From the NCBI RefSeq assembly GCF_013122565.1, contig NZ_CP053258.1: DNA of 64,000 nt; one strand, 5' to 3'. The notes beneath the pieces are model-generated. The model was not told where the DNA came from. It ran no database searches and saw nothing but the letters and a program-made list of their open reading frames with translations. Shown in pieces: positions 46,631-61,026 of the stretch. This stretch comes from Escherichia coli (GTDB taxonomy: Bacteria > Pseudomonadota > Gammaproteobacteria > Enterobacterales > Enterobacteriaceae). Both the position numbers and the translations under genes were made by a program. Position 1 is the first letter of the stretch; each line of letters starts with the position of its first letter.

Positions 46631-49600
46631 TTAATCAAACAGTGATTCGATGTCGTTAATCAGCTCGCTGGCGGTGATGTCGTTGAGCACGGAGAAAGTG
46701 GGTGAGGATTGTTTACCATAGCGATCATAAGGGGCGGTGATTTTTACGCTTTCGACAGGCAGCAGGTCGCTATACCCCGTTTCGCCATAAATTAATGAAA
46801 AAGGTTCTGTTTCAAGTTCGAGAGCGCCATAAGGGGTAGATTTGCGCATCGCATAGATGCTGCCGCTTTCTTCCAGACGTTGCCAGCCTCTGCGTTCCAG
46901 CCCGACAATGCGTCCGGCCTGGCAGAGACGTCCGTTCCAGCGTGACAATTCATGGGCATCACGCTCGTTATCCGCAAGGTGGTAACTACCACGATCGAGC
47001 TGTTGGAAAGGGGGAAGCAGTTCGTAATCAATGTATATTTGCCTGAATGCAGCGGCGGATTCAGGGGGGATTTCCAGCACATGCGGAATACCGATGTTTC
47101 CTGCTGGCAGCGTGAATAGCTCATCCTGCGCATCGCTGTAAGTGCTGTCTTCTGCCACACGAAAACAGGTGATAAGGGCGTTTTCATCGTTATAAACCCC
47201 CCATAACAGCCGTCGGGTTAAGTGACGTACCAGCGGATGCTCCACCAGAAACAGGCGGAACTGCTCTGCCGTCCAGCGTCTGCGCTGGCACATAGCCTGC
47301 TCCAGACGATCAATCTGCTGGCTGGCAATGGCGCGCACATCTTTCTTCAATTGTTTAAAGAGGTTAACGGCGTCAGTTGCCAGTGTTTGATCATCGCTCT
47401 GGTTTGGTTTGGGTAAATCTTTCAGGACTTTGCCGTTTGCGTCGCGAACCACGGGTTTCAAGGTTTCGTTAAAACCAACGGTGAATTGACGTGGGCCGAA
47501 ATCAAGTGTCAGCGAGCCATTGCTATCAAGCCCTAAATCTGGAGCCAGGCGGTCTTCCAGTTCAGCCATAGTCAGCCCACGGTTTTCAGCAACTATGTTG
47601 ATTTTCTCGCGGGCATGTTCCTGTAATGCTTTGAATTTAATTTTTCGCGCGATGCCATTAAGCAGCATTAGCGCAACATCGCTGCCAATATCAGCTAATA
47701 CATCCAGCCCGGACACCGCCCGTTTATGCTGGGATTCCCCAGGCCAGGCGCGGATGAGCGGAGTTAATTTACGCGCGGTGTCGTCATTGCCTAAAATCCC
47801 AAGCGAAGTAAATGCCCAGTTTTCTTTTGCTGGGGCACCAGCTTCTGTCCAGGCGGTATACAGATCCCAGCCAAAGTCAGCCAGTGATTCGCGGGTGAAG
47901 GTTTCTCTAATGATATCCAGCCCAGCGTAGGCGGTAATGTCGCGTGGAAAGCTCAACATTGTGCCGAGGTGGCGCATAGCGTCATCTGGCAGAGGCAGGT
48001 TGTTACTTTTAAGCCGAGGTCTGTGCCATAAGGTGAACTGATAAAAGCCGGGCAGTGGGGCGATTTTTGCAGGATATTCTTCCAGTGGGTCGCTATCAAA
48101 TAATGTTGCCAGCGCAGCTAAAACATCAGGTTGATTATATCCTTGGGCGATTTCCTCAATCGTTTCTCGCTGGTTTAAATTCACCAGCAGGCGGAGCGCC
48201 TGGCGGGCACAATCACGATCTTTTCCTTTTTTGCCCAGGGCCACAGGAAGTAGCCCGGCGGCGGCATGGCGCGGATAATCAGTTAGCCAGTTTCGCGCAT
48301 CTTCATAAGACATTTTTTTCTGTAATTGTTGCGCCATCGGTAAGGCCAGTTCACTGACACCGAGGAAAAAGGGGAAGAAGCACAGGCGTCGTGGATCACG
48401 TTGCAGGCAGGTCATAAATGCAGGTATGGCGGCGCTACCAAAAAGTGCCAGAATATTTCCCTCACCAGAGTAGTTATCTTCTTTGACTATCTGGTTAAGA
48501 AAAGAAATGGCCTGTTGACCAGGCAGGTAACAGAGGGCAATAAGATTCCAGCTTTTGTATGCATTGTTATGGTATTGCACAAATTCAGCATTCAATGCTG
48601 GAAAATCGAAGCGTAGCAGGGCATCAACGGCACTTTGTGGCGCCGGAATTTTTTCGTATATTTTTTCTCCGCTCTCCCGCCATTTTTCAAAACCAAGATG
48701 CCACAGTATTTGTTGCTCCGGTGTAAGCGGTATTAAGTGTTTCTCCCAGCTTGCTTTTTTCATCGGTGCCAGGTCGGTAAACAATGTTTGTTTTGTCGCC
48801 TGCTGTTGGGCTATTTGCTGGAAGCGGGTGATAAGGTAAGTACGGGTCAGTTTTTTGGCAATCTCTGGAGTGATATCCGAAACAGAAGGAACTGGGAGCA
48901 CAGGAAGATCAAACACCGGCGTATTTTTCTTTTTCTCTTTGGTCATCCAGGGAGGCGAAACAAACAGCTCTGGCAACATATCCGCAGTGGCATATTCACA
49001 TTCTTCAGCGACTGACTGCGGACGACATTCAGATAAGATGCCAGCGGCTTTGGCATTAACCCAGGGAATGACGTCGCATACTAACTCTGGCGTGATGGTA
49101 ATCAGTTTGATAAGTGCGTTACGCCACTGTGCATCTTCATGTATTGCCAGCAAAGTAGCATAAGCGGCAAGAGCCGCAGCGGGATGTTTTTGACAGGCTT
49201 TGCTTAAGTATTCCAGGTGCTTTTTCTTGCCAATCACACCGAGGATCAGAATTTGAATCGCATCCGGGTGATTCGTTTTCCATAGCCATTTGACAAGATT
49301 TTCAGTCTCGCTGTTGCGCTCGAAAAGATAAGTGGGATTGTCAGAATGCTCTTCCGTAAACTCAAGAAGGATCTGGCTTACACCCCGAATTCCATTATTC
49401 GCCAGCAACATTGCCAGATAAGCGCGAAAATTACGAAAATCACGATACAACGGTGGGAAGTCGTATTTTTCCACTGTACTAAGAGCAGTATCATCGGTTA
49501 TCACCAGTCTTAACCAGGTCATCGCCGGAACGTTTTGGTCTGCATAGCGTAGAGCCATAGCATTGGCAATATCCGGGCGTTCAGGGAGCAGTAACGCCGC

Positions 49601-50437
49601 AAAAGGTTGCCGTGCTGGAGATAGCGAGGGAATAGCCGCGAGTACTTTATCTACACAGCGTTGCCACTCATCTTCTGAAGCGAGTGAAAGATGATGACAT
49701 AGACGTTGATGCCAACTAGGTAGCGATTCTGCTTCGTGATTAGGTGGAATGATGGTGGTTACTGCGCCTTTTACTGGTTTATATCTAAGTTGAATAGCGA
49801 GAAGGGCAATTTCAACGGCGCTTTCCAGACCACAGCGAATGACTAAGTCATCGACCAGTTCATCTGCAGAGTAAGAGTTCCAGAAACTCCAGAGCAATGC
49901 TGCATCAGATTGCGCACTCCCTGTCTGTTGATTACCCTGAACTCGCATTTGTAACTCAGCAAAAGCATGCTGCCAGTTTTCTGGATAAGAACGGTAATTG
50001 TTGTCGGGATCATATGCCCTGGTGTTATCTGCAATACGCTTCCATATCTCACCGTCTTTGCGCAGATAATTGATCTCTCTGGGGCGAGAGCGATGAGGGA
50101 AAGCAAATCGATTAATATCGTCAGTTACCGGAATGACTGCATCATCAGCCAGCCATGGGCGTTTGTTTTTACTCTCAAGGGAAGTTTCAACTTCAGGAGT
50201 GGCTTTGGTGCTGGAGATATGCACGTTTGCTGAAGCATCTTCCACATAGCCTTTTTTCGTTTTCTCTGCGATAAGCTTTAGTTCCGCTTTTGCCGCTGCC
50301 GCAGCATCCGCAAAACTTTTTACCTGGCTTTGCCCTTGGGTGCCAACTTTTCCCCAACTGATATGCAACTCGTTTCCCTGTTGCTCCACCGCCCAGAATT
50401 TATGTGATTTTTCGTCCTGATAGATAAAGCGTCTCAT
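46631..50437 (-). CDS. MolR-like giant protein, paralog 4 (1268 aa)
   Basis: N-terminus MRRFIYQDEKSHKFWAVEQQGNELHISWGKVGTQGQ (WGR); most divergent of the four but retains conserved blocks (TARKLTPLIRAWPGESQHKRA, DYELLPPFQQLDR). Confidence 0.8.
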   Translation of the reverse strand: MRRFIYQDEKSHKFWAVEQQGNELHISWGKVGTQGQSQVKSFADAAAAAKAELKLIAEKTKKGYVEDASANVHISSTKATPEVETSLESKNKRPWLADDAVIPVTDDINRFAFPHRSRPREINYLRKDGEIWKRIADNTRAYDPDNNYRSYPENWQHAFAELQMRVQGNQQTGSAQSDAALLWSFWNSYSADELVDDLVIRCGLESAVEIALLAIQLRYKPVKGAVTTIIPPNHEAESLPSWHQRLCHHLSLASEDEWQRCVDKVLAAIPSLSPARQPFAALLLPERPDIANAMALRYADQNVPAMTWLRLVITDDTALSTVEKYDFPPLYRDFRNFRAYLAMLLANNGIRGVSQILLEFTEEHSDNPTYLFERNSETENLVKWLWKTNHPDAIQILILGVIGKKKHLEYLSKACQKHPAAALAAYATLLAIHEDAQWRNALIKLITITPELVCDVIPWVNAKAAGILSECRPQSVAEECEYATADMLPELFVSPPWMTKEKKKNTPVFDLPVLPVPSVSDITPEIAKKLTRTYLITRFQQIAQQQATKQTLFTDLAPMKKASWEKHLIPLTPEQQILWHLGFEKWRESGEKIYEKIPAPQSAVDALLRFDFPALNAEFVQYHNNAYKSWNLIALCYLPGQQAISFLNQIVKEDNYSGEGNILALFGSAAIPAFMTCLQRDPRRLCFFPFFLGVSELALPMAQQLQKKMSYEDARNWLTDYPRHAAAGLLPVALGKKGKDRDCARQALRLLVNLNQRETIEEIAQGYNQPDVLAALATLFDSDPLEEYPAKIAPLPGFYQFTLWHRPRLKSNNLPLPDDAMRHLGTMLSFPRDITAYAGLDIIRETFTRESLADFGWDLYTAWTEAGAPAKENWAFTSLGILGNDDTARKLTPLIRAWPGESQHKRAVSGLDVLADIGSDVALMLLNGIARKIKFKALQEHAREKINIVAENRGLTMAELEDRLAPDLGLDSNGSLTLDFGPRQFTVGFNETLKPVVRDANGKVLKDLPKPNQSDDQTLATDAVNLFKQLKKDVRAIASQQIDRLEQAMCQRRRWTAEQFRLFLVEHPLVRHLTRRLLWGVYNDENALITCFRVAEDSTYSDAQDELFTLPAGNIGIPHVLEIPPESAAAFRQIYIDYELLPPFQQLDRGSYHLADNERDAHELSRWNGRLCQAGRIVGLERRGWQRLEESGSIYAMRKSTPYGALELETEPFSLIYGETGYSDLLPVESVKITAPYDRYGKQSSPTFSVLNDITASELINDIESLFD

Positions 50438-50577: not shown

Positions 50578-52611
50578 TTATTTCACCTGATGACCCGGTT
50601 TAGCACCGGCATCCGGGCTTAGCAGGAAGATATCTTTCCCGCCAGGACCAGCAGCCATTACCATGCCTTCGGAGATACCAAAGCGCATTTTACGCGGCGC
50701 CAGGTTAGCCACCATAATGGTGTGACGACCAATCAGAGCCTGCGGATCCGGGTAAGCAGAACGAATGCCGGAGAAAACATTACGTTTTTCACCGCCGAGA
50801 TCCAGTGTCAGTCGCAGCAGTTTGTCAGAACCTTCAACAAACTCTGCATTTTCAATCAGCGCCACGCGCAGGTCAACTTTAGCGAAGTCGTCAAAGGTGA
50901 TGGTTTCCTGAATCGGATCGTCTGCCAGCGGGCCAGTAACTGGCGCGGCAGCTGCTTTCACTTCTTCTTTAGAGGCTTCCACCAGTGCTTCAACCTGCTT
51001 CATATCGATGCGGTTATACAGCGCCTTGAACGGATTCACTTTGTGGCCCAGCAGCGGTTGCTGGATACCATCCCAGGTCAGTTCCGTATTGAGGAATGCT
51101 TCTGCACGCTCGGTCAGTTTCGGCAGTACCGGCTTCAGGTAAGTCATCAGCACGCGGAACAGGTTTATGCCCATTGAGCAAATTGCCTGCAGGTCGGCAT
51201 CGCGGCCTTCCTGTTTCGCCACAACCCACGGAGCCTGTTCATCGACATAGCGGTTAGCCAGATCAGCCAGCGCCATGATTTCGCGCACGGCTTTACCAAA
51301 TTCGCGGCTTTCCCACGCTTCACCAATCACTTCAGCGGCATCAGTGAAGGTTTTGTACAACTGCGGGTCAGCCAGTTCGCTTGCCAGCACACCGTCAAAA
51401 CGCTTGTTGATAAAGCCCGCATTACGAGAGGCCAGGTTAACCACTTTGTTAACGATATCGGCATTCACGCGCTGAACGAAATCTTCCAGGTTGAGATCGA
51501 TATCATCAATGCGCGAAGAGAGTTTCGCAGTGTAGTAGTAACGCAGGCTGTCAGCGTCAAAATGATTCAGCCAGGTGCTGGCTTTAATAAAGGTACCGCG
51601 AGACTTAGACATCTTCGCGCCGTTCACCGTCACATAGCCATGAACAAACAGGTTGGTCGGCTTGCGGAAGTTGCTGCCTTCCAGCATTGCTGGCCAGAAC
51701 AGACTGTGGAAGTAAACAATATCTTTACCGATGAAGTGGTACAGCTCGGCGGTGGAGTCTTTCTTCCAGTATTCATCGAAGCTTACGCTGTCGCCGCGCT
51801 TGTCGCACAGATTCTTGAAAGAACCCATATAGCCAATCGGCGCATCTAGCCAGACGTAGAAATATTTACCCGGCGCGTTCGGAATTTCAAAACCGAAGTA
51901 CGGCGCGTCGCGGGAGATATCCCACTGTTGCAGGCCGGATTCAAACCACTCCTGCATTTTATTTGCCACCTGCTCCTGCAACGCACCGCTGCGGGTCCAT
52001 GCCTGCAACATTTCGCTGAAAGAGGGCAGATCAAAGAAGAAGTGTTCAGAATCACGCATTACCGGCGTAGCGCCAGAAACCACCGATTTCGGCTCGATCA
52101 ATTCAGTCGGGCTGTAGGTCGCGCCGCAAACTTCGCAGTTATCGCCGTATTGATCCGGGGATTTACATTTCGGGCAGGTGCCTTTCACAAAACGGTCCGG
52201 CAGGAACATGCCTTTTTCCGGATCGTACAGCTGAGAGATGGTGCGGTTTTTAATAAAACCGTTTTCTTTCAAGCGAGTATAGATAAGCTCAGACAACTGG
52301 CGGTTCTCTTCGCTGTGCGTCGAGTGATAGTTGTCATAGCTGATGTTAAAGCCTGCGAAATCAGTCTGATGCTCCTGACTCATTTCGCCAATCATCTGCT
52401 CCGGGGTGATACCAAGCTGCTGAGCTTTCAGCATGATCGGTGTACCGTGGGCATCGTCGGCGCAGATGAAGTTGACCTCGTGGCCGCGCATTCGCTGGTA
52501 ACGGACCCAGACATCAGCCTGGATGTGCTCCAGCATATGGCCGAGGTGGATTGAGCCGTTAGCGTACGGCAGTGCGCACGTCACCAGAATTTTCTTCGCG
52601 ACTTGAGTCAT
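50578..52611 (-). CDS. metG: methionyl-tRNA synthetase, 677 aa
   Basis: HIGH-region ([14 protein letters not shown]), KMSKS motif, Zn knuckle CPKC...CEVC; start ATG 52611..52609. Confidence 0.95.
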
Positions 52612-52742
52612 AGTAGGCATTACTTCTTAATAGTGAAAAGGGGTTAGATAGTACCAAATGGGAAAATGTTAAGTAAGTACTTCTCTATATTCTTCAGGTA
52701 AACTATCAGCTGATGGTTTATCTATACAAAAAAGGAGTCGGG

Positions 52743-53852
52743 ATGAACGAACAATCCCAGGCCAAATCACCAGAAGCCTTGCGCGCAATGGTCGCCGGGA
52801 CACTGGCCAATTTTCAGCACCCAACCCTGAAGCATAACCTCACCACGCTGAAAGCGTTGCACCATGTCGCCTGGATGGACGACACGTTGCATGTGGAACT
52901 GGTTATGCCATTCGTCTGGCATAGCGCGTTTGAAGAGTTAAAAGAGCAATGTAGCGCCGAACTGCTGCGTATCACCGGGGCGAAAGCTATCGACTGGAAA
53001 CTGTCGCACAATATCGCCACCTTAAAACGCGTGAAGAATCAGCCGGGTATTAATGGCGTGAAGAACATCATTGCGGTCAGTTCCGGTAAAGGCGGCGTGG
53101 GTAAATCCTCCACGGCGGTAAACCTGGCGCTGGCACTGGCGGCGGAAGGGGCGAAAGTCGGCATTCTGGACGCCGATATCTACGGCCCATCAATTCCCAC
53201 CATGCTGGGCGCAGAAAATCAGCGTCCAACTTCGCCGGACGGTACCCATATGGCACCGATTATGTCTCATGGCCTGGCAACCAATTCAATTGGTTATCTG
53301 GTTACTGACGACAATGCGATGGTGTGGCGTGGACCGATGGCGAGCAAGGCGTTAATGCAGATGTTGCAGGAAACCTTGTGGCCGGATCTCGACTATCTGG
53401 TGCTTGATATGCCGCCAGGCACCGGTGACATTCAGCTGACGCTGGCGCAGAACATTCCGGTGACTGGTGCGGTAGTGGTCACCACCCCGCAGGACATCGC
53501 GCTGATCGATGCGAAAAAAGGCATTGTGATGTTCGAGAAAGTCGAAGTTCCGGTGCTCGGTATTGTCGAGAACATGAGTGTGCATATTTGCAGTAACTGT
53601 GGTCACCATGAACCGATTTTCGGTACCGGTGGTGCAGAGAAACTGGCTGAAAAATACCATACACAGCTGCTGGGGCAGATGCCGTTACACATCTCCTTAC
53701 GTGAGGATCTCGATAAAGGCACGCCAACGGTTATCAGCCGTCCGGAGAGCGAATTTACCGCTATCTACCGCCAGCTGGCTGACCGCGTTGCAGCTCAGCT
53801 CTACTGGCAGGGTGAAGTCATTCCAGGCGAGATTTCCTTCCGCGCGGTCTAA
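52743..53852 (+). CDS. apbC: Fe-S cluster carrier ATPase ApbC/Mrp, 369 aa
   Basis: Deviant Walker A GKGGVGKSS and CxxC (CSNCGHH) seen; start ATG 52743. Confidence 0.9.
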   Translation: MNEQSQAKSPEALRAMVAGTLANFQHPTLKHNLTTLKALHHVAWMDDTLHVELVMPFVWHSAFEELKEQCSAELLRITGAKAIDWKLSHNIATLKRVKNQPGINGVKNIIAVSSGKGGVGKSSTAVNLALALAAEGAKVGILDADIYGPSIPTMLGAENQRPTSPDGTHMAPIMSHGLATNSIGYLVTDDNAMVWRGPMASKALMQMLQETLWPDLDYLVLDMPPGTGDIQLTLAQNIPVTGAVVVTTPQDIALIDAKKGIVMFEKVEVPVLGIVENMSVHICSNCGHHEPIFGTGGAEKLAEKYHTQLLGQMPLHISLREDLDKGTPTVISRPESEFTAIYRQLADRVAAQLYWQGEVIPGEISFRAV

Positions 53853-54114
53853 CGCCTATTAACCATTCTGGTTATTCTTCATACACCGCAGAGATGTTAC
53901 ATTGATGCGGTGTATTTGTTTTTGCCGCATTAATGAACACTTATTTAATACTGCGAATATTCTGCGGACCTTCGTCCGAAACTCTACAAAGTCGATTGAT
54001 CATACAGGCAATGCGTCATTATCATCCTTCGTGGCTGTGTAGTGGATGTACAGCTATAGTTTGTTATGCACTCATTCTATCCAGGCATAACCTTTACTAC
54101 AGGGATAACGTTCA

Positions 54115-54396
54115 ATGAATAAGTATTGGCTGTCAGGAATTATTTTTCTTGCCTATGGATTGGCTTCTCCCGCATTCTCTTCAGAGACTGCCACATTAGC
54201 GATTAATGGCAGGATCAGTCCCCCAACATGCAGTATGGCTATGGTTAATGGTCAACCTCAACAGCATTGTGGTCAGTTAACGTATAATGTTGACACCCGT
54301 CATCTGTTTTCTTCGCCCGTCAAAGGTGTAACGACAGAAGTGGTTGTTGCAGGTAGCGATAGCAAACGTCGAATCGTGTTAAATCGCTACGATTAA
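54115..54396 (+). CDS. yehE: small secreted protein YehE (DUF2574), 93 aa
   Basis: Signal peptide MNKYWLSGIIFLAYGLASPAFS; position upstream of the yehDCBA fimbrial genes. Confidence 0.7.
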   Translation: MNKYWLSGIIFLAYGLASPAFSSETATLAINGRISPPTCSMAMVNGQPQQHCGQLTYNVDTRHLFSSPVKGVTTEVVVAGSDSKRRIVLNRYD

Positions 54397-54688
54397 TTTG
54401 GCAACCTGATTTTAATTGCATTTAGAAAGCCGAAATCATTTATATAAATGATCTCGGCTTTTTTATTGATATCAACAATACCATTTACATAAATCTACAT
54501 TAATTGATAGATGCGATAAATAGTTAATACTCTTAAATATTTGTTGTATTTATATTGCAATGGTTAATTTGTTTTAAATCAATAAAACAATATGTTTACA
54601 TTGCGGCAACTTTTTTGATGTGAGAAATTTGTTTCCAAGAGATACAGACTATTAACAACCAAAAATAAATTTTATTAAGGAACATATT

Positions 54689-55231
54689 ATGAAACGTTCA
54701 ATTATTGCTGCCGCTGTCTTTTCTTCTTTTTTTATGAGCGCTGGAGTATTTGCTGCAGACGTTGATACCGGAACATTAACTATTAAGGGGAATATTGCAG
54801 AATCTCCGTGTAAATTCGAAGCGGGTGGTGATTCAGTAAGTATTAATATGCCAACTGTACCAACCACTGTCTTTGAAGGTAAAGCTAAATATTCTACCTA
54901 TGATGATGCAGTCGGTGTAACCAGTAGCATGTTAAAAATTAGCTGCCCGAAAGAAGTTGCTGGTGTAAAACTCTCGTTGATTACCAACGATAAAATAACT
55001 GGTAACGATAAGGCGATAGCCAGTAGCAACGATACTGTGGGTTACTATCTCTATTTAGGTGATAACAGCGAAGTCCTGGATGTTTCTGCACCTTTTAACA
55101 TTGAGAGTTATAAAACAGCGGAAGGTCAATATGCTATTCCGTTTAAAGCAAAATACCTGAAACTGACAGATAGCTCAGTGAATTCAGGTGATGTGTTATC
55201 TTCTCTGGTTATGCGTGTGGCGCAGGATTAA
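54689..55231 (+). CDS. yehD: fimbrial major subunit-like protein YehD, 180 aa
   Basis: Signal peptide plus conserved Cys pair and pilin-like C-terminal beta-strand; first gene of a chaperone-usher cluster. Confidence 0.8.
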   Translation: MKRSIIAAAVFSSFFMSAGVFAADVDTGTLTIKGNIAESPCKFEAGGDSVSINMPTVPTTVFEGKAKYSTYDDAVGVTSSMLKISCPKEVAGVKLSLITNDKITGNDKAIASSNDTVGYYLYLGDNSEVLDVSAPFNIESYKTAEGQYAIPFKAKYLKLTDSSVNSGDVLSSLVMRVAQD

Positions 55232-55310
55232 TAAATAAAATTGTAAGTTTCTCCAGGTAATAAACATGGCCGCTATCCCATGGCGGCCTTTTAATTTAAG
55301 AGGCATTAAA

Positions 55311-55985
55311 ATGAAAGGATTATTATCTTTACTCATTTTTTCTATGGTCCTTCCTGCACATGCCGGAATTGTTATCTACGGGACGCGCATTATTTACCCG
55401 GCAGAAAATAAAGAAGTGATGGTGCAGTTGATGAACCAGGGAAACCGTTCTTCGCTGCTGCAGGCGTGGATTGATGATGGCGATACGTCATTACCACCAG
55501 AAAAAATTCAGGTTCCTTTCATGTTAACGCCACCAGTGGCAAAAATAGGGGCAAATTCCGGGCAGCAAGTAAAAATCAAAATTATGCCGAATAAACTGCC
55601 CACTAATAAAGAAAGCATTTTTTATCTGAATGTTCTGGATATTCCACCAAATAGTCCAGAGCAAGAAGGTAAGAATGCACTGAAGTTTGCGATGCAAAAC
55701 AGAATTAAGTTGTTTTACCGGCCAGCGGGTATTGCTCCGGTAAATAAAGCGACATTTAAAAAATTGCTGGTAAATCGCAGTGGCAATGGTTTGGTGATAA
55801 AAAATGACTCAGCTAATTGGGTGACGATTTCGGATGTCAAAGCTAATAATGTCAAAGTCAATTATGAAACTATTATGATTGCCCCCTTAGAAAGTCAGAG
55901 TGTTAATGTCAAAAGTAATAATGCAAATAACTGGTATCTGACCATTATCGATGACCACGGCAACTATATTAGTGACAAAATTTAA
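55311..55985 (+). CDS. yehC: periplasmic fimbrial chaperone YehC (PapD-like)
   Basis: Start chosen at ATG 55311 (signal peptide MKGLLSLLIFSMVLPAHA, GAGG SD); ORF track allows an upstream start at 55266 (239 aa). PapD-like motifs (RIIYP, KLFYRP). Confidence 0.8.
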   Translation: MKGLLSLLIFSMVLPAHAGIVIYGTRIIYPAENKEVMVQLMNQGNRSSLLQAWIDDGDTSLPPEKIQVPFMLTPPVAKIGANSGQQVKIKIMPNKLPTNKESIFYLNVLDIPPNSPEQEGKNALKFAMQNRIKLFYRPAGIAPVNKATFKKLLVNRSGNGLVIKNDSANWVTISDVKANNVKVNYETIMIAPLESQSVNVKSNNANNWYLTIIDDHGNYISDKI

Positions 55986-56000
55986 TTGCAGGAGCTGCCT

Positions 56001-58481
56001 ATGTTGAGAATGACCCCACTTGCATCAGCAATCGTAGCGTTATTGCTCGGCATTGAAGCTTATGCAGCTGAAGAAACCTTTGATACCCATTTTATGATAG
56101 GTGGAATGAAAGACCAGCAGGTTGCAAATATTCGTCTTGATGATAATCAACCCTTGCCGGGGCAGTATGACATCGATATTTATGTCAATAAACAATGGCG
56201 CGGGAAATATGAGATCATTGTTAAAGACAACCCGCAAGAAACATGTTTATCAAGGGAAATTATCAAGCGGTTAGGCATTAACACCGATAACTTCGCCAGT
56301 GGAAAGCAATGTTTAACATTTGAGCAACTTGTTCAGGGCGGGAGTTATACCTGGGATATCGGAGTTTTTCGTCTCGATTTCAGTGTCCCGCAGGCCTGGG
56401 TGGAAGAACTGGAAAGTGGCTATGTTCCACCGGAAAACTGGGAGCGGGGTATTAATGCGTTTTATACCTCTTATTATGTGAGTCAGTATTACAGTGACTA
56501 TAAAGCGTCGGGTAATAGTAAGAGTACATATGTACGTTTTAACAGCGGGTTAAATTTACTGGGGTGGCAACTGCATTCTGATGCCAGTTTCAGTAAAACA
56601 AATAACAATCCAGGGGTGTGGAAAAGCAATACCCTGTATCTGGAACGTGGATTTGCCCAACTTCTCGGCACGCTTCGCGTGGGTGATATGTACACATCAA
56701 GCGATATTTTTGATTCTGTTCGCTTCAGCGGTGTGCGGTTGTTTCGTGATATGCAGATGTTGCCTAACTCGAAACAAAATTTTACGCCACGGGTGCAGGG
56801 GATTGCTCAGAGTAACGCGCTGGTAACTATTGAACAGAATGGTTTTGTGGTTTATCAGAAAGAGGTTCCTCCTGGCCCGTTTGCGATTACAGATTTGCAG
56901 TTGGCCGGTGGTGGAGCAGATCTTGATGTCAGCGTGAAAGAGGCGGACGGCTCGGTTACCACCTATCTGGTGCCTTATGCAGCGGTGCCAAATATGCTGC
57001 AACCTGGCGTATCGAAATATGATTTTGCGGCGGGTCGTAGCCATATTGAAGGGGCAAGCAAACAAAGTGATTTTATCCAGGTGGGTTATCAGTATGGTTT
57101 TAATAATTTATTGACGCTGTATGGTGGCTCGATGGTCGCGAATAATTACTACGCGTTCACTTTGGGGACTGGCTGGAATACACGCATTGGTGCCATTTCC
57201 GTCGATGCCACGAAGTCGCATAGTAAACAAGACAACGGCGATGTGTTTGACGGGCAAAGTTATCAAATTGCTTACAACAAATTTGTGAGCCAAACGTCGA
57301 CACGTTTTGGTCTGGCGGCCTGGCGTTATTCGTCGCGTGATTACCGGACATTTAATGATCACGTTTGGGCAAACAATAAAGATAATTATCGCCGTGATGA
57401 AAACGATATCTATGACATTGCCGATTATTACCAGAACGATTTTGGCCGTAAAAATAGCTTTTCTGCCAATATGAGCCAGTCATTGCCAGAAGGCTGGGGT
57501 TCTGTGTCGTTAAGTACGTTATGGCGAGATTACTGGGGACGTAGCGGCAGCAGTAAGGATTATCAGTTGAGTTATTCCAACAACCTGCGACGGATAAGCT
57601 ATACCCTCTCGGCAAGCCAGGCTTATGACGAGAATCATCATGAAGAGAAACGATTTAATATTTTTATATCGATTCCCTTTGATTGGGGTGATGACGTTAC
57701 GACGCCTCGTCGGCAAATATATATGTCTAACTCAACGACGTTTGATGATCAAGGTTTTGCCTCAAATAATACGGGATTATCAGGAACCGTTGGAAGCCGG
57801 GATCAGTTTAACTATGGGGTCAACCTGAGTTATCAGCATCAGGGAAATGAAACGACAGCTGGAGCTAATTTGACCTGGAATGCGCCGGTTGCGACAGTGA
57901 ATGGCAGTTATAGTCAGTCGAGTACTTATCGACAGGCTGGAGCCAGGGTTTCAGGGGGCATTGTCGCCTGGTCGGGTGGCGTTAATCTGGCGAACCGTCT
58001 TTCCGAAACGTTTGCTGTGATGAATGCACCTGGCATTAAAGATGCTTATGTCAATGGGCAAAAATATCGCACAACAAACCGTAATGGAGTGGTGGTATAC
58101 GACGGAATGACACCTTATCGGGAAAATCACCTGATGCTGGATGTGTCGCAAAGCGATAGCGAAGCAGAATTACGTGGCAACCGGAAAATTGCCGCCCCTT
58201 ATCGCGGCGCGGTTGTACTGGTTAATTTTGATACCGATCAGCGCAAGCCATGGTTTATAAAAGCGTTAAGAGCAGATGGGCAACCATTAACGTTTGGTTA
58301 TGAAGTCAATGATATCCATGGTCATAATATTGGCGTTGTCGGCCAGGGAAGTCAGTTATTTATTCGCACCAATGAAGTACCGCCATCGGTTAATGTGGCA
58401 ATTGATAAGCAACAAGGACTTTCATGCACAATCACCTTCGGTAAAGAGATTGATGAAAGTAGAAATTATATCTGTCGGTGA
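56001..58481 (+). CDS. yehB: outer-membrane fimbrial usher YehB, 826 aa
   Basis: Start ATG 56001 (MLRMTPLASAIVALLLGIEAYA); usher-family length and beta-rich sequence. Confidence 0.85.
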   Translation: MLRMTPLASAIVALLLGIEAYAAEETFDTHFMIGGMKDQQVANIRLDDNQPLPGQYDIDIYVNKQWRGKYEIIVKDNPQETCLSREIIKRLGINTDNFASGKQCLTFEQLVQGGSYTWDIGVFRLDFSVPQAWVEELESGYVPPENWERGINAFYTSYYVSQYYSDYKASGNSKSTYVRFNSGLNLLGWQLHSDASFSKTNNNPGVWKSNTLYLERGFAQLLGTLRVGDMYTSSDIFDSVRFSGVRLFRDMQMLPNSKQNFTPRVQGIAQSNALVTIEQNGFVVYQKEVPPGPFAITDLQLAGGGADLDVSVKEADGSVTTYLVPYAAVPNMLQPGVSKYDFAAGRSHIEGASKQSDFIQVGYQYGFNNLLTLYGGSMVANNYYAFTLGTGWNTRIGAISVDATKSHSKQDNGDVFDGQSYQIAYNKFVSQTSTRFGLAAWRYSSRDYRTFNDHVWANNKDNYRRDENDIYDIADYYQNDFGRKNSFSANMSQSLPEGWGSVSLSTLWRDYWGRSGSSKDYQLSYSNNLRRISYTLSASQAYDENHHEEKRFNIFISIPFDWGDDVTTPRRQIYMSNSTTFDDQGFASNNTGLSGTVGSRDQFNYGVNLSYQHQGNETTAGANLTWNAPVATVNGSYSQSSTYRQAGARVSGGIVAWSGGVNLANRLSETFAVMNAPGIKDAYVNGQKYRTTNRNGVVVYDGMTPYRENHLMLDVSQSDSEAELRGNRKIAAPYRGAVVLVNFDTDQRKPWFIKALRADGQPLTFGYEVNDIHGHNIGVVGQGSQLFIRTNEVPPSVNVAIDKQQGLSCTITFGKEIDESRNYICR

Positions 58482-58491
58482 GAGGTGGAAT

Positions 58492-59526
58492 ATGATGTTC
58501 AGAAATGGAATGTTACTAATATTTATTTTATGGGCTAATTTTACCTGGGCTGGATGTCGTACCACTGCATCATTAAATATTACTGATAGTATTAATGTGG
58601 GGGAGATTTTAGCGAATGAGGTTTCCTTTAGTAAAAATGTCGTGTTTACTGGGATATCTTGTGATACGAGCACGGATAAAATAGTTTATAAAAATATCCA
58701 AAGTGATTGGGTTGAAGTTGGGCCTTTTGGTAATGGCGAAAAATTAAAGGTTAAAATAGATTCTTTAGGTAAAAACAGTGAGACGATTGGGAAATCCAGC
58801 AATGCGCAGGCAGAATTACCCTATGTGGTTAAAATTGCCAGAGGTACACTTGATTTTACTGGAGAAAGAAAACCAACCTGGTTTCTTTCAGATACTGTGA
58901 TTGCAAATATTGGCGGTGAGTCATCTACATCTATCGACTTTTGGTTGGGAATTTGTAAGACATTGAAGATTAACTGGTGTGTAAGTTATCTCACCAGTAA
59001 ACTGGCGGGGGATACATTTACGCTTGGGTTAAGTATTTCCTATTATCCTAAAAATACGACCTGTAAGCCTGAAAACACAATAATAAAAGTAGATGATATT
59101 GCCTTGTCCCAGCTCAGAAGTCAGGGAAAGATTACGGCGAACAGTAAGGAAGGAATAATTTCGTTGAAATGTGATAATCTTTTCGGCGACAAAAACCAAG
59201 CATCGAGGAATATGGTCGTATATCTTTCCAGCAGTGACTTAGTTACAGGAAGCAATACAATTTTGCGTGGCAACATAGATAATGGTGTAGGATTTGTGTT
59301 GGATCTAAAAGAACCACCAAAAGGAACTGAAGCTGCCATCAAAATTTCTGCTAGCGGCAATCAGGGCGCGGCGACATCATTATGGAAAACAGATAAACCA
59401 GGGGCTTCTTTAAATAGCAATATTATTAATATACCAGTTATGGCCAGTTACTACGTCTACGATACAAACAAAGTTAAATCTGGCGCACTGGAGGCAACCG
59501 CATTAATCAACGTGAAATACGACTAA
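58492..59526 (+). CDS. yehA: fimbrial adhesin-like protein YehA, 344 aa
   Basis: Start ATG 58492 with GAGG SD; signal peptide MMFRNGMLLIFILWANFTWA; longer overlapping ORF in track rejected. Confidence 0.8.
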   Translation: MMFRNGMLLIFILWANFTWAGCRTTASLNITDSINVGEILANEVSFSKNVVFTGISCDTSTDKIVYKNIQSDWVEVGPFGNGEKLKVKIDSLGKNSETIGKSSNAQAELPYVVKIARGTLDFTGERKPTWFLSDTVIANIGGESSTSIDFWLGICKTLKINWCVSYLTSKLAGDTFTLGLSISYYPKNTTCKPENTIIKVDDIALSQLRSQGKITANSKEGIISLKCDNLFGDKNQASRNMVVYLSSSDLVTGSNTILRGNIDNGVGFVLDLKEPPKGTEAAIKISASGNQGAATSLWKTDKPGASLNSNIINIPVMASYYVYDTNKVKSGALEATALINVKYD

Positions 59527-59582
59527 TAACAAGCAAGACGAGCAAGTGGCTAATAATAAAAAATAACAAGGTGTCTGCATTT

Positions 59583-59609
59583 CCCCCTCATGATGAGGGG
59601 GCTTTTTTT
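59583..59609 (+). terminator. intrinsic terminator after yehA (CCCCCTCAT/ATGAGGGGG + T7)
   Basis: Inverted repeat and U-tract read directly; overlaps the rcnB stop codon on the opposite strand. Confidence 0.6.
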
Positions 59610-59946
59610 AGCGATGATAAAAAATCTCACCGTCGTAGGCTTTAATGATTTTACCGTCGGTGTCGCTGATCAACACGTACGCGCCACCCATATAGGTCCA
59701 GTGCGTCCCGGCATCAGGCGCGGGCAGGTTACGTAACTGCCACTGCTTAATGTTGTACTCATCGGTGCGGTACATCTCTGGGACGGTATCGCCTGGTTTG
59801 AAATGCTTAAAGTCAGCAATGAAACTGCTTAACTCATACTTGGAAATTCCCGAGGTATTGGTCGAACCCGCGGTGGCTGGTGCGGCCCAGGCGGCACTGG
59901 TAACCAGCAAAAGCGCACCCAGCAACATCTTATTTTTAATGGTCAT
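59608..59946 (-). CDS. rcnB: periplasmic Ni/Co homeostasis protein RcnB (YohN), 112 aa
   Basis: Start ATG 59946..59944 (MTIKNKMLLGALLLVTSAAWA signal peptide); ORF-track upstream extension rejected. Confidence 0.85.
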   Translation of the reverse strand: MTIKNKMLLGALLLVTSAAWAAPATAGSTNTSGISKYELSSFIADFKHFKPGDTVPEMYRTDEYNIKQWQLRNLPAPDAGTHWTYMGGAYVLISDTDGKIIKAYDGEIFYHR

Positions 59947-60164
59947 AAACTCTCCACTTTGGGGATCTGTAATATCAGTCGCATATCTTTCCTGCCATAC
60001 AATATAACTGACAAGCGATATTTTGTTAGTGATCCCATGATTTCGTAAAAAGTGTAAATGAAAGGATGCCCTAAAAGCATCCTTAGCGAGCAGAGAGTCA
60101 GCGGAAATAGCTGATTTAAGAATCATCCTGGGCTGAAGATAACATGCAAGCCTAAAGGATTGAG

Positions 60165-60989
60165 TTATCGCATTATGCCCATGAAGCCATGTACGCCCAT
60201 ATACACACCAACTAAGCCAATCAACAGACTGGAAAAATAGGGGGCGCGTTTAGCGAGAGTGTTAAATCCGCTCCAGCGTTTTGCGACCTGCTGAACGCTG
60301 ATTGCTGCGCCAACGCCTACGGTGACAAGCGTTAACGCCAGGCCAATGCTAAAACTTACGACCAGTGTTGCGCCCAGTGTCAGGGCTTTCAACTGAATGC
60401 AAATCAACAGCACGGTAATTGCTGCCGGGCAGGGGATAAGGCCACCGGTTAAGCCAAATAACAAAATTTGCCAGTTGGTGACCTCTCTACCATCAAAGCG
60501 TCGTTTAATGTCATTAGCATGGGCTCGTGCATGAGCATCCTGATACTCGCCATGTTCGTGATGGTGATGATGCCCATGGTCGTGGTGATCTTCGTGATCG
60601 TGGTGATGATGTTCATGATCATGCTCGTGCATATTCTCCAGCCAGTTGCGTTCGCCGCGCCAGGTACGCCAGAACATCCAGAACGCGGTGCCAATAATGA
60701 TCACTGCAGAAATCAACTGGAGCCACGGTTCTGCAGATTGAGCAGTAAAGCGTTTGCTGATCACCATCCCGCCAAAGGCAATCAACCAGACCACCGCGGT
60801 ATGCGAAATGGTTGCTGCCAGTCCGAGCATCACCGCCTGTTTAATGGTGCCTTTGATGGCGATGATAAACGCCGCCATCATCGTTTTTGAGTGCCCTGGT
60901 TCCAGGCCATGAAGCGCACCAAGTAAGATGGCGCTGGGGATGAAGAACCAGGCGTTTCCTTGCTGAAGAAGAGTTGTAAATTCGGTCAT
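60165..60989 (-). CDS. rcnA: nickel/cobalt efflux protein RcnA, 274 aa
   Basis: Membrane protein with His-rich loop HEHDHEHHHHDHEDHHDHGHHHHHEHGE seen. Confidence 0.9.
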   Translation of the reverse strand: MTEFTTLLQQGNAWFFIPSAILLGALHGLEPGHSKTMMAAFIIAIKGTIKQAVMLGLAATISHTAVVWLIAFGGMVISKRFTAQSAEPWLQLISAVIIIGTAFWMFWRTWRGERNWLENMHEHDHEHHHHDHEDHHDHGHHHHHEHGEYQDAHARAHANDIKRRFDGREVTNWQILLFGLTGGLIPCPAAITVLLICIQLKALTLGATLVVSFSIGLALTLVTVGVGAAISVQQVAKRWSGFNTLAKRAPYFSSLLIGLVGVYMGVHGFMGIMR

Positions 60990-61026
60990 GATAATAATTC
61001 TTAGTATTAATTCGGCAATCTGATTC

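Follow-up and report, generated by a model that had tools for sequence, protein, structure and literature searches.

Organization of the yeh locus

The window analyzed here is a 64-kb stretch of Escherichia coli DNA, in which the region around the gap between yehE and yehD corresponds to the metG / apbC (mrp) / yehE / yehDCBA / rcnB segment of E. coli. An 848-nt query (53853-54700) found matches in 5,422 of 5,426 complete E. coli genomes and was 99.3% identical to K-12 MG1655. The gene order of K-12 is that of the window (apbC, yehE, yehD, yehC, yehB, yehA and the convergent rcnB), and its genes are annotated as coding for a YehE family protein (yehE), a fimbrial protein (yehD), a chaperone (yehC), an usher (yehB) and an adhesin-like protein (yehA). 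Few substitutions separate the window from K-12 here, one of which lies inside the ArcA site described below. The two also differ at 46631-50437 (minus strand), next to metG, where the window has an intact gene for a protein of 1267 aa that contains WGR and DUF4132 domains; in the K-12 annotation its counterpart is a pseudogene, with a frameshift and an internal stop.

An initial annotation, made from the sequence alone, had described a complete chaperone-usher operon (major subunit, chaperone, usher and adhesin-like subunit) behind a leader of roughly 290 nt. The description of the operon was borne out by Pfam matches and by the reading frames of yehD, yehC, yehB and yehA, which have the same lengths as in K-12: a major subunit, a PapD-like chaperone, an usher and a tip adhesin-like subunit are all present and intact (Table 1). 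The assignment of Yeh to the gamma4 class is taken from the literature. Wurpel et al. described Yeh as a core-associated fimbrial type whose locus is common to Salmonella Stc and Citrobacter (PMC3559732), and the orthologous yeh/stc cluster was found by us in four genera, Escherichia, Salmonella, Citrobacter and Superficieibacter. The gap itself is bounded by the yehE stop codon (54394-54396) and the yehD start codon.

Table 1. Features of the yeh locus, in positions of the 64-kb window.
Feature	Position	Strand	Description
yehE	54115-54396	+	DUF2574, 93 aa, secreted; monocistronic, upstream of and co-conserved with the fimbrial cluster
yehE-yehD intergenic region	54397-54688	+	292 nt, 24.3% GC
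yehE intrinsic terminator	54424-54466	+	hairpin 54424-54463, T-run 54459-54464 (U6)
Distal spacer	54470-54535		AT-rich, poorly conserved
H-NS-motif-like 10-mers in distal spacer	54502-54511; 54513-54522	-; +	2 mismatches each
Conserved core, putatively regulatory	54536-54632		blocks TTATATTGC, TGTTTTAAATCAATAAAACA, GTTTACATTGCGGyAAC and TGTGAGAAw
Alternative -10-like element TATATT	54551-54556		reads TATAAT in Superficieibacter
Published ArcA-P site	54570-54612	-	K-12 2190321-2190363; four direct repeats, 11-bp phasing; spans the inverted repeat 54570-54589
Candidate sigma-70 promoter TTTAAA-18-TACATT	54573-54602	+	proposed from relaxed hexamer scan and conservation
Alternative -10-like element TGTGAGAAA	54619-54627		
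Shine-Dalgarno AAGGA and yehD start codon	54677-54681; 54689-54691	+	AAGGA 7 nt before ATG
yehDCBA operon	54689-59526	+	intact gamma4 chaperone-usher operon
yehD	54689-55231	+	180 aa, Pfam Fimbrial
yehD-yehC hairpin	55268-55297	+	G+C-rich, then TTTTAATTT; -15.3 kcal/mol, z -2.8
yehC	55311-55985	+	224 aa, Pfam PapD_N and PapD_C
yehB	56001-58481	+	826 aa, Pfam PapC_N, Usher and PapC_C
yehA	58492-59526	+	344 aa, Pfam Fimbrial in C-terminal half
yehDCBA intrinsic terminator	59583-59609	+	hairpin and T-run

The small protein YehE (DUF2574) goes with the cluster at all orthologous loci found in Escherichia, Salmonella, Citrobacter and Superficieibacter, including those without a neighboring apbC. 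In a profile-profile comparison, hhalign aligned YehE to residues 1-44 of the YehD family (probability 96.4%, E = 1e-9), covering the signal peptide and the strand TATLTINGRVxxPTC; a direct BLASTP comparison of YehE with YehD was not significant. YehE contains two invariant Cys residues and ends in IVLNRYD, with a penultimate Tyr. A conserved penultimate Tyr is typical of fimbrial subunits. The AlphaFold model of YehE is poor (mean pLDDT 60). By these sequence features YehE resembles a mini-pilin, or else a subunit that was duplicated in part. One group has cloned yehE together with yehDCBA as "Yeh".

Among the 5,422 E. coli genomes the yeh locus is strongly multi-allelic, with 2313 genomes at 99% identity or above, 1125 at 95-99%, 1612 at 90-95% and 372 at 80-90%. 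In the allele of O157:H7 (Z1830), yehE, yehD and yehC are 75%, 79% and 84% identical to the window while the flanking apbC is 99% identical, and yehB of this strain carries an internal stop and is annotated as a pseudogene. YehA of several Escherichia genomes matched in its C-terminal half only (46-52%) despite a YehB identity of 91-94%, so the N-terminal, receptor-binding half appears to be hypervariable or exchanged. In E. coli NCTC9967 an IS1 element directly follows apbC, and the genes from yehE to most of yehA are absent, as if the whole Yeh locus had been deleted in association with IS1.

Terminators and hairpins

A hairpin of 40 nt with a predicted energy of -18.6 kcal/mol (z -6.5) begins 27 nt past the yehE stop codon. 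In an alignment of 24 orthologues from the four genera, 94.6% of the cells were paired, compared to 31-46% when the 3' partners were slid. Double, compensatory changes were found in 7 of the 13 pairs, and the covariation score was 0.549, while the slid versions reached no more than 0.135. Compensation is also seen between E. coli alleles, in which the stem reads CG/CG, TG/CA, TT/AA or CA/TG. This hairpin is the Rho-independent terminator of yehE itself. Since a covarying intrinsic terminator follows it, yehE is a unit of its own, and the initial ~70 nt of the intergenic region are not a leader of yehD. The inner stem at 54435-54455, ATCATT and (G)AATGAT around the loop, is nearly invariant across the genera while the outer stem covaries freely. 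Such invariance is unusual for a plain terminator, and the inner stem could be a protein-bound DNA palindrome or a specific RNA feature.

The term leader, which the initial annotation had used for the whole region, could not be confirmed, as its first ~70 nt form the yehE terminator, no transcription start is mapped and neither an Rfam match nor a conserved fold was found. A long 5' leader with a regulatory RNA structure (a thermosensor, something riboswitch-like or a target of an sRNA) might control yehD after initiation; besides the earlier designation as a leader, the higher yeh expression at 28 C in O157 and a weak AAGAG/CTCTT hairpin ~25 nt upstream of the ribosome-binding site speak for it. 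We nevertheless consider such an RNA very unlikely. Scanning 52000-61000 against Rfam with E-values up to 1 yielded no match in the region. Folding the proximal 165 nt of 20 orthologues together gave a consensus of only -2.3 kcal/mol with essentially no covariation, on which grounds a structured leader was rejected. Moreover, the terminator would end any upstream transcript, yehD has no known start site, and temperature dependence is equally typical of H-NS.

As many fimbrial operons are phase-variable, a switch was considered as well, working either by inversion of an element, like fimS, or by Dam/Lrp methylation, like pap. Several short inverted repeats are indeed present (for example 54461-54475 with 54573-54587), but they are short, imperfect and typical of AT-rich DNA, i.e. 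at chance level, and no recombinase gene is adjacent. The region contains a single GATC (54450), which is located inside the yehE terminator and is absent from K-12. All 5 E. coli alleles and all 25 orthologues have the same orientation. A switch of either type was therefore rejected and is extremely improbable.

The claim of a clean intrinsic terminator at the end of the operon was confirmed. An 8-bp stem with 6 G-C pairs (59583-59601), followed by CTTTTTTT, is located 57 nt past the yehA stop codon. Its T-run shares nucleotides with the stop codon (59608-59610) of rcnB, the convergent gene; read on the minus strand, the hairpin (59583-59610) has no U-run behind it. The hairpin between yehD and yehC, to judge from its predicted structure, is probably a partial terminator or an mRNA stabilizer after the major-subunit gene that may favor the mRNA of this gene. 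Hairpins favoring the major-subunit mRNA occur in other fimbrial operons. Directly 3' of apbC, an inverted repeat (ATACACCGCAGAGATGT/ACATTGATGCGGTGTAT) followed by TTTGTTTTTG is found at 53881-53925, which is the probable apbC terminator and would place yehE between two terminators.

Base composition of the yehE-yehD intergenic region

The AT-rich stretch of roughly 290 nt noted before yehD is exactly the intergenic region, and with 75.7% AT it is the lowest-GC stretch of 292 nt in the window, which has 50.1% GC overall. Only 0.05% of all 292-nt windows are equally low in GC, and all of these fall within this one valley. The A/T tracts that had been pointed out in addition are present, but not as a signal of their own: 7 homopolymer tracts of at least 4 nt were counted, compared to 7.2 +/- 2.3 in shuffles of the same composition, so that the tracts carry no signal beyond AT-richness.

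In 25 orthologous loci from the four genera, the yehE-yehD region is 272-319 nt long with 24-32% GC, and the surrounding loci have 39-53% GC. The low GC content is kept in all of them despite a distal sequence that is not conserved. This combination, in which GC content and a length of ~280 nt are maintained across genera while the sequence drifts, points to AT-richness as a substrate for H-NS/StpA, and the contrast in GC content within the window as well as in the orthologues is as expected for a xenogeneically silenced region.

The composition could also be passive, a trait of a horizontally acquired cluster under relaxed selection, or the region could hide a small gene. The whole yeh cluster is AT-rich (38-45% GC), the distal spacer evolves fast, and small ORFs occur on both strands. 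However, the cluster was already in place at this locus in the ancestor of Escherichia, Salmonella and Citrobacter, its intergenic region has nonetheless remained at 24-32% GC and ~280 nt, and the core described in the next section bears the marks of strong purifying selection. The small ORFs at 54555-54623 (plus strand), 54579-54662 and 54596-54685 (both minus strand) are disrupted even within Escherichia, by loss of the start codon or by new stops, and were rejected as not conserved. Both variants of this explanation thus have very little probability, and the composition is better read as a maintained property of a control region.

A conserved core upstream of yehD

Downstream of the yehE terminator, the intergenic region continues with two parts of different conservation. 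The distal spacer is 57% identical in the O157:H7 allele and 39-61% identical to the other genera, and it is likely generic H-NS-bound or UP-like DNA. The 97-bp core next to it has 69-85% identity to the other genera. Its inner part (54567-54610) shares 82-91% identity with the counterparts in Salmonella, Citrobacter and Superficieibacter. In the same comparison, identities were 54-58% for yehD, 58-63% for yehE, 63-72% for yehC, 69-76% for yehB and 83-85% for apbC. The inner core is hence conserved at the level of the housekeeping gene apbC, next to fimbrial proteins that are down to 30-50% amino acid identity. The same pattern is seen within E. coli, as the proximal 148 bp of the O157 allele are 90.5% identical, compared to 57% in the distal part and 75-79% in yehE and yehD.

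Two elements stand out in the inner core. The first is a perfect inverted repeat, TGTTTTA-N6-TAAAACA (54570-54589), a 20-mer that is unique within the window. The second is the invariant 13-mer GTTTACATTGCGG (54594-54606), which occurs solely in yehE-linked orthologous loci and there always ~95 nt upstream of the yehD start. Further downstream, ATTAAGGAA around the yehD Shine-Dalgarno sequence is conserved across genera.

The core is under strong purifying selection. Its conservation is block-wise, concerns the primary sequence and comes without RNA structure, which fits protein-binding DNA together with promoter elements. A second, paralogous cluster is present in E. whittamii, Escherichia sp. 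E1V33 and Klebsiella spallanzanii, with YehC 55-56% and YehB 62-65% identical. This second cluster lacks yehE and also lacks the 13-mer, which indicates that the core is specific to the yehE-linked locus.

The upstream region of Salmonella stcABCD is built in the same way, in the order apbC-yehE-intergenic-stcA, with an intergenic region of 278 nt, 25-26% GC and the same terminator and core, even though StcA is only 34-36% identical to YehD at the protein level. A difference was found in the downstream block, for which S. arizonae has TGTGCGAAT and S. diarizonae TATGAGAAT, each with a terminal AAT, compared to TGTGAGAAA in Escherichia.

ArcA site and promoter candidates

Park et al. (2013) listed an ArcA box of 12.3 bits at K-12 2190321-2190363 in their supplement, found an ArcA ChIP-seq peak at yehD (3.9-fold, in 1 of 2 replicates) and reported a 5.4-fold derepression of yehDCBA in an arcA mutant (PMC3798270). 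The published 43-mer maps to the inner core with one substitution (Table 1). The site coincides with the most conserved part of the core, its repeat pentamers sit on columns that are invariant across the genera, and its sequence has the arrangement of an ArcA-P operator, at least two TGTTA-like direct repeats at a centre-to-centre distance of 11 bp. ArcA-P is the only experimentally supported binder at this place; from the conservation pattern we infer that the core as a whole acts as a protein-binding operator.

With the multi-repeat ArcA-P operators described by Park et al. (2013) the site shares four direct repeats, the 11-bp phasing, a length of ~43 bp and anaerobic repression. Unlike other ArcA-P operators, it consists of a weak box (12.3 bits) with a ChIP peak in one replicate, and its conservation reaches beyond the pentamers, to ATCAA, ATTGCGG and the perfect 7-bp inverted repeat. 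Because of this additional conservation, other proteins or promoter elements may share the site.

A transcription start is not known for yehD, for which Park et al. state "no TSS" (PMC3798270), and according to the literature the start site of Salmonella stcABCD is likewise unmapped. The candidate sigma-70 promoter TTTAAA-18-TACATT lies wholly inside invariant sequence and is overlapped by the ArcA repeats. Two alternative -10-like elements are located on either side. The downstream one, TGTGAGAAA, corresponds to TGTGAGAAT or TGTGCGAAT in the majority of orthologues from Citrobacter and Salmonella, i.e. to TGn followed by a hexamer that ends in T. Most likely, as judged from hexamers and conservation, the yehD core promoter lies within the conserved core, where the multi-repeat ArcA-P operator overlaps it.

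A different view of the same DNA is offered by the work of Panyukov and Ozoline, who listed yehD/yehE (2190229, 357 bp) among 78 "promoter islands" and marked it as linked to genomic islands (PMC3661553). Mapped from the ArcA 43-mer, this island 2190229_357 covers ~54348-54704 of the window and encloses the whole intergenic region. In a promoter island, dense overlapping promoter-like sites over 300 bp or more would trap RNA polymerase and H-NS and give rise only to abortive oligonucleotides, and there would be no single dedicated promoter or operator. The listing of yehD/yehE as an island, with its link to genomic islands and H-NS, speaks for this possibility. Yet a simple scan for -35/-10 hexamers found 5 sites (1.6 in an average 292-nt window), fewer than the 12 +/- 4 in composition-matched shuffles, and a stricter sigma-70 scan of the region gave 2, neither scan showing an excess over composition. 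The deep, block-wise conservation of ~45-97 bp across genera also points to specific sites and not to diffuse density. As an explanation in its own right the promoter island is thus a possible but rather unlikely one, and it overlaps with the composite regulatory region proposed below more than it excludes it.

Evidence for silencing by H-NS

That the region contains an H-NS-silenced cryptic fimbrial promoter, as the initial annotation had proposed, is in agreement with published K-12 data, which describe it as an H-NS-bound island, a member of the H-NS regulon and part of an occupancy domain. The yehD/yehE region is marked as H-NS-bound in the datasets of Kahramanoglou (2011) and Oshima (2006) as compiled in PMC3661553. 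Curran et al. included yehDCBA in the H-NS regulon and observed a 3.6-fold increase on SlyA overproduction (PMC5797941); the yehD region was not among the promoters tested by EMSA in the SlyA work. That yeh is poorly expressed, repressed by H-NS and functional if artificially driven is attributed to Korea et al. (2010) in PMC5797941, and H-NS repression of yeh is credited to the same work in PMC3559732. In a 2024 preprint yehEDCBA was assigned to a static extended protein occupancy domain of the H-NS/StpA type, the loss of which alone does not induce yehDCBA. Overproduction of BolA raises yehD and yehC.

The high-affinity H-NS nucleation motif tCGATAAATT has three matches with 2 mismatches each in the region or at its edge. 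This 10-mer is not significantly enriched window-wide, with 77 matches compared to 64 +/- 7.5 expected. As neither the sigma-70 hexamers nor the H-NS 10-mer are in excess, the case for H-NS rests on composition and on the published occupancy and expression data. By analogy with K-12, whose sequence is 99.3% identical, H-NS silencing of the intergenic region is supported for the strain analyzed here.

In O157:H7 the yeh locus forms one transcription unit that is measurably active from its native promoter, with enhanced activity in response to ethanolamine and more activity at 28 C. Given this native expression, the label "cryptic" depends on strain and condition, and H-NS is one layer of control among several.

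Discussion

Taken together, we are confident that the DNA between yehE and yehD is a composite regulatory intergenic region of the Yeh (Salmonella Stc) gamma4 fimbrial operon that is subject to H-NS/StpA silencing. Four parts follow one another in this composite region: the Rho-independent terminator that ends the separate gene yehE, ~65 bp of fast-evolving and extremely AT-rich DNA, the ~97-bp cross-genus core, which would combine the yehD core promoter with the overlapping multi-repeat ArcA-P operator, and finally a short, presumably untranslated stretch (the last ~55 nt) that leads with the ribosome-binding site to the start codon. The very low GC content of the region, along with the AT-rich body of the operon, may provide a platform for the nucleation and spreading of H-NS/StpA filaments, and these filaments would keep yehDCBA nearly silent in laboratory K-12. 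On top of this, the counter-silencers SlyA and BolA, when overproduced, and the specific repressor ArcA under anaerobiosis would modulate the operon.

Much of this picture is already known. In K-12, the same locus with 99.3% identical sequence and the same gene order was described both as an H-NS-bound promoter island and as an H-NS-repressed cryptic fimbrial promoter. The H-NS proposal thus restates what is documented, the silencing by H-NS of an E. coli fimbrial operon that is core yet cryptic, and adds little alone. In the literature that we found, the covariation-supported yehE terminator, the cross-genus core on the ArcA site and the co-inheritance of yehE are not stated; we regard them as modest refinements. 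The precise map separates the yehE terminator from the yehD control region.

Other cryptic, H-NS-silenced promoters of E. coli (yad, elf/ycb, sfm and fimB/fimE/fimA) resemble that of yeh in being AT-rich promoter islands and H-NS targets that are raised by SlyA. Unlike these systems, the Yeh cluster encodes no regulator or recombinase of its own, comes with a small, separately terminated and co-conserved gene upstream, and has a cross-genus core that coincides with an ArcA site.

More tentatively, the 45-97-bp promoter-operator core, with its inverted repeat and GTTTACATTGCGG, and the co-inherited, separately terminated yehE could together represent a dedicated ancient module under an H-NS blanket, in which the core would be bound by ArcA plus another factor that gives the inducing signal. 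We treat this as a speculative proposal with a low chance of being correct. Such a module may date from before the split of Escherichia, Salmonella, Citrobacter and Superficieibacter. The conserved sequence of the core offers a concrete target for finding what switches on the Yeh and Stc fimbriae of E. coli and Salmonella.
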